DNA from: a candidate division FCPU426 bacterium
Lineage (GTDB): Bacteria; Oederibacteriota; Muellerivitia; Muellerivitales; Muellerivitaceae
NCBI GenBank assembly: GCA_963719085.1
Contig: CAVRAL010000004.1
Coordinates: forward strand, 416,001 to 480,000
Length of the DNA stretch: 64,000 bases
Reading direction: 5' to 3'
This document shows, piece by piece, positions 50,500-62,351 of the stretch. The notes under the pieces were generated by a model, which saw nothing but the letters and a program-made list of their open reading frames with translations, was not told the DNA's origin and did not search any database. A program made the translations under genes and the position numbers. Each line of letters opens with the position of its first letter. The first letter of the stretch is position 1.

Positions 50500-50574
50500 T
50501 CCCCGGTAGCTCAATGGTGGAGCATGCGACTGTTAATCGCAGGGTTGTTGGTTCGAGTCCAACCCGGGGAGCCA
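50500..50574 (+). tRNA. tRNA-Asn(GTT)
   Basis: tccccggtagctcaatggtggagcatgcgactGTTaatcgcagggttgttggttcgagtccaacccggggagcca. Confidence 0.97.
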
Positions 50575-50579
50575 TAAAC

Positions 50580-59453: not shown

Positions 59454-59672
59454 GAGACTATTTTGAGGCCTGGACAAGCAAAAGGCCACTTTCTTTTTAA
59501 AGAGCCGAATAAAATAAGACAGCAGTCTCGATACACTTAATTTTTTGAAAAACGGAAACAGCATTTTTAAAACAAGCGCTTTTGAACGATATGGCGAGGT
59601 GTTCAGCGGGGCTTTCAAAACGCTCGTCGGTTTGGTGTTCTGGGTATGGCCTGTTCTTTAAAGGAGTTCCTG

Positions 59673-60290
59673 GTGCCGAATCGGGAAGAGCATTGGGAAA
59701 AGATCTATTCCGAGAAAAATCCGGATGAGGTGAGTTGGTTCCAGGAAGTCCCAAAAAAATCCCTCGACCTGATAAACCTGTCCGGAGTTTCAAAGGACGG
59801 GAATGTAATTGATGTTGGCGGGGGGGCATCGGTCTTGGTGGATCGCCTCTTGGAAAACGGGATGAAAAACATCACGGTTTTGGACATTTCCAGCAAGGCT
59901 CTCGAATATGCGAAAAAGAGGCTTGGAAACCGGGCCCAACAGGTGAAATGGGTGGTGGCCGACGTAACCCAATTCAACCCTTCGGAAAAGTTCGATTTAT
60001 GGCACGACAGGGCGGTTTTTCATTTTTTAACGGAGGCATCCGACCGTAAACGATATGCCGAAATAGTCGGCCATTCCATTAAACCCGGGGGCCATTTGAT
60101 CCTGGCTTCGTTCGCGTTGGACGGCCCGGACAAATGTAGTAACTTGCCGGTTTGCCGGTATGACGGCGAAATGATCGAACACGAGCTTGGAAATAATTTC
60201 AAATTGATTAAAGAAGATTCTGAAACCCATTTAACACCTTGGAAGAAAGAGCAAAAATTCAGGTATTTTTTATTCTCTAAAACATTATAA
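59673..60290 (+). CDS. Class I SAM-dependent methyltransferase
   Basis: HWEKIY..EVSWFQ, IDVGGG, LDIS, WHDRAVFHFL. Confidence 0.92.
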   Translation: MPNREEHWEKIYSEKNPDEVSWFQEVPKKSLDLINLSGVSKDGNVIDVGGGASVLVDRLLENGMKNITVLDISSKALEYAKKRLGNRAQQVKWVVADVTQFNPSEKFDLWHDRAVFHFLTEASDRKRYAEIVGHSIKPGGHLILASFALDGPDKCSNLPVCRYDGEMIEHELGNNFKLIKEDSETHLTPWKKEQKFRYFLFSKTL

Positions 60291-60416: not shown

Positions 60417-60448
60417 TTGACCCTGAAGTATACTCCAGCATTTATACT
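60417..60448 (+). promoter_or_regulatory. MerR-type promoter/operator
   Basis: TTGACC-N20-TATACT with dyad CTGAAGTA|TACTCCAG in the spacer. Confidence 0.88.
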
Positions 60449-60465
60449 TTCCCCCGGAGTCGAAA

Positions 60466-60843
60466 ATGAAAATAAACGGATCGTTCTTACAAATCGGGCA
60501 AGTGTCCAAGCAAAGCGGGATGTCCATTGACACCATCCGGTATTACGAAAAGGAAGGCTTGCTGAAAAAACCGTCCCGAAGCGCGGGGGGATTCAGGCTT
60601 TACCCCAAGGAAGCCGTCGATCAATTGGTTTTCATCCGGAAGGCCCAGGGAATGGGCCTCACACTTGGCGAGATCAAGAAAATAACCTGTTGTGGGGACA
60701 AAGGGCTGGGGCCCTGTTGCGACCTGACCGTTGACCTGTTCACCAAGAAGATCAACGAGTTCGAGGCGAAGATTTCTGAAATTCAGGGGATGAAAAAGAA
60801 GTTAAAGACGGTTTTGGGCGGTTGGGTAAAAAACAAGAAGTAG
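60466..60843 (+). CDS. MerR-family regulator with two vicinal Cys pairs
   Basis: IGQVS..SG..IDTIRYYEKEGLL..R..GGFRLY, FIRKAQ.MGLTL.EI, CC-x7-CC. Confidence 0.93.
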   Translation: MKINGSFLQIGQVSKQSGMSIDTIRYYEKEGLLKKPSRSAGGFRLYPKEAVDQLVFIRKAQGMGLTLGEIKKITCCGDKGLGPCCDLTVDLFTKKINEFEAKISEIQGMKKKLKTVLGGWVKNKK

Positions 60844-60848
60844 GGGGA

Positions 60849-61268
60849 ATGGCTATGCGGGCTCACTTGTCCATCGATGTTGAGAATGTCGAAAAATCGG
60901 TTGAATTTTACGAGAAGGTTTTTGGCGAAAAACCCCAAAAACAATCCGATCACTACGCCAAGTTCGACCTCAAGAATCCCGCCCTGAACTTCTCCATGCA
61001 AAGCCATGTAGGGCATCCCTCCAGCCGGGTAAACCATCTTGGCATAGAGGTTGATTCTCCCCAGGACTTGGCCAATTGGCAGGCAAGACTGCAAGCCCAA
61101 GGGCTTGTGAAAAGGGTGGAAACCCAAACATCCTGTTGTTTCGCGCGGCAGGATAAGCTTTGGTTCGAGGACCCGGATGGCAATGCCTGGGAAGTCTTCC
61201 ACGTCTATGAACAACTGCCCCTCCACGCTTCCGCCATGAAAGACAGCCAGTGTTGCCCCAAACCCTGA
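60849..61268 (+). CDS. arsI: ArsI/CadI-family VOC metalloenzyme (putative C-As lyase)
   Basis: RAHLS, YAKF..P.LNF, NHLGIEV, TSCCFARQDKLW..DPDGNAWEVF. Confidence 0.85.
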   Translation: MAMRAHLSIDVENVEKSVEFYEKVFGEKPQKQSDHYAKFDLKNPALNFSMQSHVGHPSSRVNHLGIEVDSPQDLANWQARLQAQGLVKRVETQTSCCFARQDKLWFEDPDGNAWEVFHVYEQLPLHASAMKDSQCCPKP

Positions 61269-61942
61269 TTCTTTGGAAAAAATCTCTGGCCGAGGGCGTT
61301 GGGACCTTCACCCTCGTTTTCGCCGGATGTGGGGCCATCATGGTGGCCGAGAGGTATCCCGGAACCCTTTCACACGCTTCCATATCGATTGTCTTCGGCT
61401 TGGCGGTGGCCGTCATGATTTACGCCGTGGGCCATATCTCAGGGGCCCACTTTAATCCCGCCGTCACCCTAGCCTTCGCGGTCGCTAGGCACTTTCCCTT
61501 CCAGGAAGTCCTGGCTTATTGGACGGCCCAGCTCTTGGGCGGCTTGGCCGCGATCGGTGCCCTAAAGTTGATGCTCCCTCCCGGCCATTCTTACGGGGCG
61601 ACCGTCCCGACCGTGCCCCTCATACCGGCCTTGGCGTGGGAAATCATCCTGACTTTTTTCCTCATGTTCGTGATTGTGGCCGTGGCCACCGATACCCGGG
61701 CCGTGGGAACCATGGCCGGGGCGGCCATCGGGGGCACGGTCATGATGGCGGCTTGGGTTGGCGGGCCGATCACCGGTGCTTCCATGAATCCCGTCAGGTC
61801 GTTCGCCCCGGCGGTATTTGAGGGGCAGTTGGGAGTGATGTGGATTTACCTTTTGGGGCCTTGTCTGGGGGCGGTTCTAGCCGCATTGTTTTACGAGGCC
61901 ATCCGAATGACACCTGGCAACGGGAAAAACAATAAGGAGTAG
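61250..61942 (+). CDS. MIP-family channel (putative arsenite-conducting aquaglyceroporin)
   Basis: [26 protein letters not shown]. Confidence 0.92.
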
Positions 61943-61946
61943 GCTT

Positions 61947-62351
61947 GTGAAAAAGATTCTTTTCATGTGTGTGGCCAATTCGGGAAGAAGCCAAATGGCT
62001 GAAGGGATGGCCAAAAAGCTCTTTGGGGACCGAGCTTTAATCCAAAGCGCCGGTTCTAAGCCTTCCGTCGTAAATCCTTTCGCCATCAAGGCCATGGCTG
62101 AAATCGGCATTGATATCACGGGCCAACGGTCAAAATCAGTGGATGAGATAGATCCGTCCACGGTGGATACGGTCATTACACTTTGTGCCGAAGAAGTGTG
62201 CCCTGTTTTCCTCGGAAAAGCTGAACGCCTGCACTGGCCCCATACGGACCCTGGGCATGGCAAAACCACGGACGAGGAAAAACTCCAAAGCTTCCGGGAG
62301 GTAAGGGATCAAATCCAAAACAGGTTAAAGGTTTTTAAAGAGACGTTATAA
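61947..62351 (+). CDS. arsC: Arsenate reductase, LMW-PTPase (thioredoxin) type
   Basis: [31 protein letters not shown]. Confidence 0.92.

Follow-up and report, generated by a model that had tools for sequence, protein, structure and literature searches.

A 64,000-nt stretch of contig CAVRAL010000004.1 from a candidate division FCPU426 bacterium (hereafter the window) contains four co-directional genes, merR, a VOC-family gene, a MIP-family gene and arsC, which are separated by 11 bp, by a 19-bp overlap and by 4 bp, respectively, and which form an arsenic resistance (ars) operon headed by a regulator of the MerR family. The initial annotation of this stretch proposed that a MerR protein here replaces the usual ArsR repressor, senses As(III) or methylarsenite through a relocated CC-x7-CC site and activates its own operon by untwisting the promoter DNA. 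The tight linkage of the four genes is borne out by the open reading frames (ORFs) and by profile scans; the feature is real and well conserved, and, as detailed below, the observation is confirmed and the interpretation is partly supported. Coordinates are window positions unless prefixed with G000 (the genome to which the window belongs) or with another genome (G) or locus (L) label; C-prefixed numbers after a genome label denote contigs, e.g. G000:C4. MerR proteins without the C-terminal metal-binding loop are called tail-less. The features of the locus are the following.

60417..60422, plus strand: -35 hexamer TTGACC, with TTGA(C/T) found in 33 of the 33 tail-less loci scored
60423..60438, no strand: 16-bp dyad with halves CTGAAGTA and TACTCCAG (7 of 8 positions pair) within the 20-bp spacer, predicted MerR operator
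60443..60448, plus strand: -10 hexamer TATACT, 20 bp from the -35 hexamer, read from the sequence
60466..60843, plus strand: tail-less MerR-family regulator of 125 amino acids (aa) with C75-C76-x7-C84-C85, from profile scans, homologue alignment and an AlphaFold model
60855..61268, plus strand: ArsI/CadI-family VOC metalloenzyme, predicted C-As lyase (NF041414, 142.9 against a cut-off of 116)
61250..61942, plus strand: MIP-family channel (NPA/NPV; PF00230), predicted As(OH)3 exit channel of the AqpS kind
61947..62351, plus strand: arsenate reductase ArsC of the low-molecular-weight phosphatase fold (C8-x5-R, C80, C85), from the LMWPc model and a PDB match

The assignment of the three downstream genes is straightforward. 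The ArsI/CadI protein matches the PDB 5cb9 series, which we take to be the ArsI of T. curvata, without gaps (E 1.7e-22). Its residues H4, H61 and E113, presumably the Fe ligands of ArsI, and C94-C95, presumably the vicinal pair, align with that series, so that the full ArsI signature (Fe ligands His/Gln, His and Glu plus a vicinal Cys pair) is present, along with an extra C-terminal pair, C133-C134. The start codon of the MIP gene is ambiguous (GTG at 61250 or TTG at 61253). The best PDB match of ArsC is the arsenate reductase 1jl3 (E 6e-31), and the best model is the thioredoxin-type ArsC, at 123 bits below its cut-off of 174; C8, C80 and C85 are all in place, with a spacer two residues shorter than in 1jl3. 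With arsC and the MIP gene, the operon combines an arsenate reductase and an arsenite exit route in one orientation, as expected of an ars operon. The combination of ArsC with a MIP channel in place of a pump resembles the aqpS ars operon of Sinorhizobium meliloti (PMC4435449), a source that describes MIP as the lone transporter in 18 of the 18 ars operons it surveyed; ArsI has been described as a C-As lyase within ars operons (PMC6205960). What sets the window apart from these aqpS and ArsI operons is the regulator: the word MerR does not occur in the main text of either source (PMC4435449, PMC6205960).

A MerR-family regulator without the C-terminal metal-binding loop

To which branch of the MerR family does the regulator belong? 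The Pfam models MerR_1, MerR and MerR-DNA-bind all score above their cut-offs, and the AlphaFold model consists of the MerR winged helix-turn-helix (wHTH) plus a single long helix (86-121), that is, the DNA-binding domain and dimerisation helix that define the family. The nearest folds identified by Foldseek are CadR (template modelling score, TM, 0.71), PbrR and CueR. The only cysteines are those at positions 75, 76, 84 and 85, as the initial annotation had stated; there is no histidine, and the C-terminal loop with at least two Cys or His residues that is typical of the metal-sensing subfamilies is missing. In keeping with the cysteine at the start of helix 5 in the divalent-metal subfamilies, C85 aligns gap-free with the canonical helix-5 Cys of ZntR. 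The protein falls below every metal-specific equivalog cut-off (ZntR, CadR-PbrR, MerR, CueR), scoring about half of the cut-off, and has no match to the HTH_5 or HTH_20 fold of ArsR/SmtB. Judged by these profiles and folds, the regulator is a member of the MerR family outside any named metal subfamily, and is not an ArsR.

MerR, ZntR, CadR, PbrR and CueR all use a C-terminal metal-binding loop, as summarised in the MerR sections of a recent review (PMC11672702). The window regulator shares the wHTH and the long dimerisation helix with ZntR of E. coli, Hg MerR (PDB 4ua1), CadR (6jgx) and PbrR (5gpe), and the Cys at the helix-5 start with ZntR, and differs from all of them by the missing loop, by the extra cysteines 76 and 84 and by its ars targets. 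The leading position of merR in its operon is also that seen in Gram-positive mer operons (PMC6741143, section 3.1).

The family counts rest on 120 listed homologues of a total of 209. Among these 120, 107 are tail-less and 13 are tailed, with a C-terminal CPQ motif; accordingly, the possibility that the short regulator is the product of a frameshift or a broken gene was rejected. C76, G77, P83, C84 and C85 are invariant in all 107 listed tail-less homologues, and 104 of the 107 contain no Cys after C85. The predicted CC-x7-CC site therefore stands in part. Its core, C76-x7-C84-C85, is invariant, and the notion of two vicinal pairs does not hold: C75 is present in 81 of the 107 and replaced in 26, so that a three-cysteine site is the better description. 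Similarly, the proposed relocation applies to C76 and C84, which are new, and not to C85, which aligns with the ZntR cysteine; one ligand would thus be canonical and two new. The branch is small: in a set of 1.84 billion representatives of 50% clusters, 11 match at E<=1e-30, of which two full-length ones are of the tail-less CG-x2-GL-x-PCC type. A separate check for MerR-ArsC fusions gave none, the four long top matches among the cluster representatives being tandem MerR domains or a chimera that includes an ABC substrate-binding protein, and two further top matches plain MerR.

A short MerR protein could also work as a thiol or electrophile sensor of the NmlR/AdhR kind, through Cys modification, in which case any response to arsenic would be merely indirect. 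HiNmlR, which is among the fold matches of the regulator, is likewise a short MerR that lacks the C-terminal sensor region, has its cysteines in the N-terminal half, works via Cys54 and Cys71 and binds no metal, according to PMC5001606, and redox-type genes (C_GCAxxG_C_C, DGC) end some of the operons headed by the tail-less regulators. This explanation is nevertheless quite improbable: the NmlR model NF041849 gives 48 bits, with a cut-off of 175, compared with 76-85 bits for the metal-sensor models; the cysteines lie at 76, 84 and 85 rather than 54 and 71, and three invariant ones in one loop suit a metalloid site; and the operons contain ars genes, with no adh or thioredoxin-type target seen in them, the targets of HiNmlR and AdhR being formaldehyde-detoxification genes.

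The tail-less regulators consistently head ars genes

Within the phylum of the window, the regulator is found in 23 of 99 genomes, all 23 belonging to the window's order. We examined 33 tail-less loci, namely 25 genomic copies from this order and 8 metagenomic ones, and 37 when the four from Omnitrophota are included. Before counting, one locus at a contig end (L148) and two tailed ones with no downstream DNA (L115 and L232) were dropped, and L124 was retained despite a frameshift. The initial annotation suggested that homologue neighbourhoods be scored for ars genes, and the outcome is uniform: in 37 of 37 loci the regulator is followed by ars genes (arsC, acr3 or MIP, arsI, arsM, arsP). Directly downstream in the 33 loci are arsC (31), MIP (21), arsI (11), acr3 (10) and arsM (6), MIP and acr3 being mutually exclusive; the Acr3 and ArsM representatives from relatives exceed their NCBIfam cut-offs. 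Gene order and content differ among the loci, and the regulator with its promoter always comes first, as a dedicated regulator would show.

These counts do not bear out methylarsenite and demethylation as the core of the regulon, given that arsI is present in 11 of the 33 loci compared with 31 for arsC. A sensor selective for methylarsenite, with a two-thiol vicinal pair that mainly serves ArsI, would be in line with the position of arsI as the first target gene in the window, with the invariant vicinal C84-C85 and with the presence in six loci of arsM, whose product generates methylarsenite. The scarcity of arsI, its absence from the second copy of the operon in the same genome, the inorganic-arsenic function of the constant partner genes and the invariance of the third cysteine make such selectivity highly improbable compared with sensing of As(III) itself.

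In five loci (L202, L204, L205, L206 and L114) the arsC-MIP genes continue on the same strand into genes for squalene/phytoene synthase and a flavin oxidoreductase.

Promoter and operator

The promoter inferred in the initial annotation is equally consistent. The TTGACC and TATACT hexamers are separated by a 20-bp spacer that reads CTGAAGTATACTCCAGCATT, and 17 bp separate TATACT from the 125-aa merR ORF, with a probable ribosome-binding site, GGAG, at 60456-60459. Within the window, a degenerate pattern for the operator has a single match, and it matches none of 100 shuffles. A generic promoter scan did not report TTGACC-N20-TATACT because it allowed only 16-18 bp spacers. The same type of promoter, TTGA(C/T)-N20-TAnnnT plus a dyad with the consensus TTGACTCTAGAGTATACTCTAGAGTGTATACT, is present in 33 of the 33 scored loci, and a weight matrix built from these 33 finds two promoters in the entire 3.04-Mb genome (plus the reverse strand of one), both of which precede the two copies of the regulator. 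As had been noticed from the sequence, this architecture is that of the E. coli K-12 zntA promoter, PzntA, which reads TTGACT-CTGGAGTCGACTCCAG-AGTG-TATCCT; by our own count, 24 of 32 positions are identical. Spacers of 19-20 bp are a hallmark of activation by untwisting (PMC11672702, section 3.2.3; PMC9909328), and the 20-bp spacer with its dyad places the locus among such promoters.

The merR ATG comes 6-7 nt after the -10 hexamer in the relatives L209 and L223, which suggests that these two merR mRNAs may be leaderless. Just upstream of the window promoter, at 59646-60290, lies a gene for an S-adenosylmethionine-dependent methyltransferase that is not ArsM by the NCBIfam cut-off; genes resembling it (45-50% identity) are found near the tailed MerR loci L120 and L121.

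MerR and ars-type ArsR are mutually exclusive in the order

Among the 32 genomes of the window's order, all of which contain ArsC-like genes, the tail-less MerR is present in 23, an ars-type ArsR in 6, both in none and neither in 3; the ArsR count comes from a single query (E<=1e-12), the set includes several incomplete genomes, and related genomes do not count as independent cases. In four genomes without the MerR (G051, G052, G053 and G057), an ArsR with a CVC motif heads arsM-(arsC)-acr3-(arsC) cassettes that match the MerR-headed ones in make-up and differ in the operator: the operator of the ArsR-headed relatives, ATCGTATATATACGAT, is not present in the window promoter. In terms of gene content, the pattern within the order is a clean displacement. 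The reported absence of ArsR/SmtB genes from the window is upheld, since none of the four HTH_5 matches in the genome lies there, and none lies near ars genes.

In L218 (G058:C78:4052-5679), MIP-arsC has no regulator directly upstream, and the two genes are followed by a tailed MerR of the conventional type, which has a long-spacer promoter of its own; in G071 (L222), MIP-arsC likewise lacks a recognisable regulator.

Tailed sisters in Omnitrophota and the history of the tail

A natural counterpart to the tail-less proteins is found in Omnitrophota, where a profile search of 401 sampled genomes yielded 21 matches in 18 genomes, four tail-less and 17 tailed. All four tail-less regulators head acr3-arsC or arsC-arsP. 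By contrast, the tailed proteins, which keep a tail cysteine in a C-terminal YxVCPQIE motif and are 50-62% identical to the tail-less ones, head MerT/MerC-like genes in 14 of their 17 loci and CopZ-like genes in two, the remaining locus being cut off; none of the 16 tailed regulators with downstream DNA has ars genes within ~1.5 kb. We noticed no merA in the tailed loci retrieved, though no search aimed at merA was made. We infer that the cognate metal of these sisters is of the mercury type. Tailed and tail-less proteins share the operator and the PCC motif, and one genome, G100, holds one of each, 23 kb apart. Directly after many tailed merR genes, before the merT/merC-like genes, lies a conserved CPxCxxCP protein of 57-70 aa (L227:1950-2120, with equivalents in L228, L229, L231, L233, L236, L237, L240 and L244) that has no Pfam or NCBIfam match.

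In a tree of the shared core (115 residues), tailed and tail-less proteins form one clade with a support of 99, within which the tail-less proteins are nested among the tailed ones, implying one or two losses, with weak resolution. An earlier tree, based on whole proteins (39 in-group rows, fewer of them tailed), nests the tailed proteins within the tail-less ones. Both trees come from quick searches and, because they nest oppositely, do not establish the direction of the change. Probably, the tail-less branch arose from tailed, MerT/MerC-linked relatives via loss of the tail cysteine.

A proposed mechanism and its alternatives

What, then, does the regulator sense? The hypothesis that appears to accommodate these findings best is that the tail-less MerR is probably an autoregulated, As(III)-sensing activator of the ars operon, a reading built on sequence comparisons. 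Its components can be graded separately: by analogy with the characterised MerR proteins, the regulator very probably binds the dyad, and it is highly likely that it activates through untwisting; that As(III) is the inducer seems quite likely. Under this scenario, a MerR dimer, assumed to be a homodimer as is usual for the family, would occupy the dyad between the -35 and -10 hexamers and keep the misaligned promoter nearly silent. As(III), and probably also Sb(III) or methylarsenite, would be held, within one subunit, by the thiols of C76, C84 and C85, which lie in the loop that connects helix 4 to the dimerisation helix; the binding would shift the coiled coil, untwist the operator and switch on merR-arsI-MIP-arsC. 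The position of merR at the head of the operon would create positive feedback. ArsC would then convert As(V) to As(III) by reduction, methylarsenite would be demethylated to As(III) by ArsI, and As(OH)3 would leave downhill through the MIP channel. The three-Cys site is deduced from the invariance of the residues and from the AsS3 sites of ArsR; known As(III) sensors are described as using three-Cys sites, including the CCx5C motif (PMC11672702, section 3.2.2.3).

Several findings weigh against this reading. The Cys loop of the AlphaFold model (77-83) has a pLDDT below 50, too low to define the geometry of the site. Since the majority of the 37 loci are closely related, they perhaps amount to one or two independent events; in the core tree, the resolution of which is weak, the tail-less label takes two changes. 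The dyad is not specific to arsenic; it was rejected as an arsenic marker and carries no arsenic information, because PzntA and many unrelated, non-ars MerR loci share it. Besides the tail cysteine, all 13 listed tailed homologues also carry C76, C84 and C85, although C76 is missing from some tailed loci that are more distant; since sampled relatives of these 13 head MerT/MerC-type genes, the triad is in itself no proof of arsenic specificity. The regulator could be a broad soft-metal sensor with an ancestral response to Hg, Cd, Zn or Pb, the ars genes being induced by such metals or promiscuously. Apart from the shared triad, it most closely matches Hg MerR, CadR and PbrR in sequence and fold, the VOC model carries the name ArsI/CadI, and a chromate transporter and P-type ATPase are also present on the genomic island that contains the operon. 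Yet the controlled genes are arsenic-specific (acr3, arsM, arsC, arsP) in 37 of 37 loci and include no MerT/MerC reference matches, most of the genomes lack an ars-type ArsR as an arsenic signal, and the loop cysteines required by the known Hg, Cd, Zn and Pb MerRs are missing, which makes a general soft-metal sensor unlikely.

The other findings that speak against As(III) sensing by the MerR concern ArsR. In two of the four tail-less Omnitrophota loci (L223 and L225), a co-oriented ArsR-like gene precedes the regulator by 210-350 bp, which limits the claim that MerR stands in place of ArsR, otherwise supported by the 23 and 6 non-overlapping genomes of the order; the MerR promoter is kept in both loci, and in L223 a terminator-like hairpin divides the ArsR-like gene from merR. 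The window's own genome encodes four ArsR/SmtB proteins, three without cysteine and one with a CxxC motif, the latter adjoining thioredoxin, far from the ars genes. One might therefore suppose that, after loss of the tail, the MerR became blind to any inducer, acting as a constitutive activator or a plain repressor, and that any control by arsenic is exerted by an ArsR encoded elsewhere. An inducer-blind protein would not retain three cysteines in 107 of 107 listed homologues; furthermore, no ars-type ArsR was detected with the one query used (E<=1e-12) in the 23 MerR-bearing genomes of the order, and the window promoter lacks the operator of the ArsR-headed relatives, so that we regard this possibility as very improbable.

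Returning to the arsenite-sensing activator, its closest functional counterparts are the As(III) repressors of the ArsR/SmtB family (the R773, A. ferrooxidans CCx5C and C. glutamicum types, and the Sb(III) sensor AntR), which, as summarised in PMC11672702, section 3.2.2.3, are similarly encoded by the first ars gene, with autoregulation, predicted here as well, and use a three-Cys site. These have a different fold and act by derepression, as opposed to the DNA-distortion activation predicted for the window regulator. The reviews consulted treat As(III) sensing as an ArsR role: arsenic is not among the MerR inducers in section 3.2.3 of PMC11672702 or Table 1 of PMC12665635, nor is it listed in the other MerR sections of the former, a 2024 review, including 3.2.3.5; the main text of a 2021 MerR review and of a 2026 network preprint contains no word beginning with 'arsen'; and no arsenic-sensing MerR is announced at the abstract level of the literature searched, which mostly excludes subscription journals. 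Two candidate precedents were rejected: AntR belongs to the ArsR/SmtB family (PMC12665635), and PMC6741143 (abstract and section 3.1) describes Slr0701 as a mercury regulator. Likewise, the MerR genes that lie close to ars genes in two loci each of Actinomycetota (L009, L035) and Terriglobia (L010, L014) were treated as chance neighbours; L010, L014 and L035 hold their own ArsR-type gene, and in all four loci the MerR gene either is directed away from the ars genes or comes after them. The window regulator is likely an undescribed kind of arsenite-sensing activator.

We lean slightly towards the composite view that it represents a new class of arsenic sensors, a MerR without the inter-subunit metal loop that holds As(III) on three cysteines of the helix 4-5 loop of one subunit, originated from a mercury-type regulator by tail loss and displaced ArsR across the order. 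If so, the locus would provide the first example of an ars operon under positive control by DNA untwisting, the MerR family would gain a new inducer and a new allosteric site, and the tailed and tail-less proteins would show how little has to change for a mercury-type sensor to become an arsenic sensor. Nature provides two contrasts that make the question directly testable: tailed, MerT/MerC-linked and tail-less, ars-linked regulators that share 50-62% identity and an operator and coexist in G100, and matching cassettes headed by MerR or by ArsR. In practical terms, a low-leak activator could improve arsenic biosensors, and searches for ars operons that are based on ArsR overlook the MerR-headed loci.

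Genomic context and other observations

The genome of 3.04 Mb (99% complete) contains a second copy of the regulator, 82% identical, that heads MIP-arsC without arsI (G000:C4:334032-332495, L081); this merR-MIP-arsC arrangement, with the same short downstream neighbour, is present in the same-genus genome G069. Cross-regulation between the two copies is likely because they share a nearly identical operator. No acr3 was found in this genome, and its remaining four MerR_1 matches show no metal-sensor features.

The operon of the window lies on a 32-kb island, the left boundary of which is in the window.

50530..50576, plus strand: left island boundary, the 3' part of tRNA-Asn (47 bp), exactly repeated at G000:C4:498509-498555

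The distal repeat adjoins a phage-type integrase, and the guanine-plus-cytosine content is lower in most 2.5-kb bins from window position ~54000 up to the integrase. Besides the ars operon, the genes on the island include those for two P-type ATPases, PPK2, a chromate transporter and a Fic protein.

In Acidobacteriota (L010, L014, L028), we observed another MerR type, which has one Cys in helix 5, a coiled coil that ends in W and a tail free of Cys. It heads a gene for a His-rich exported protein, and two copies are located right behind ArsR-headed ars operons. Finally, ARAGORN reports at G000:C4:375938-376013 a tRNA-His with the anticodon ATG, unusual for bacteria, beside a normal GTG one; the former may be a false call.

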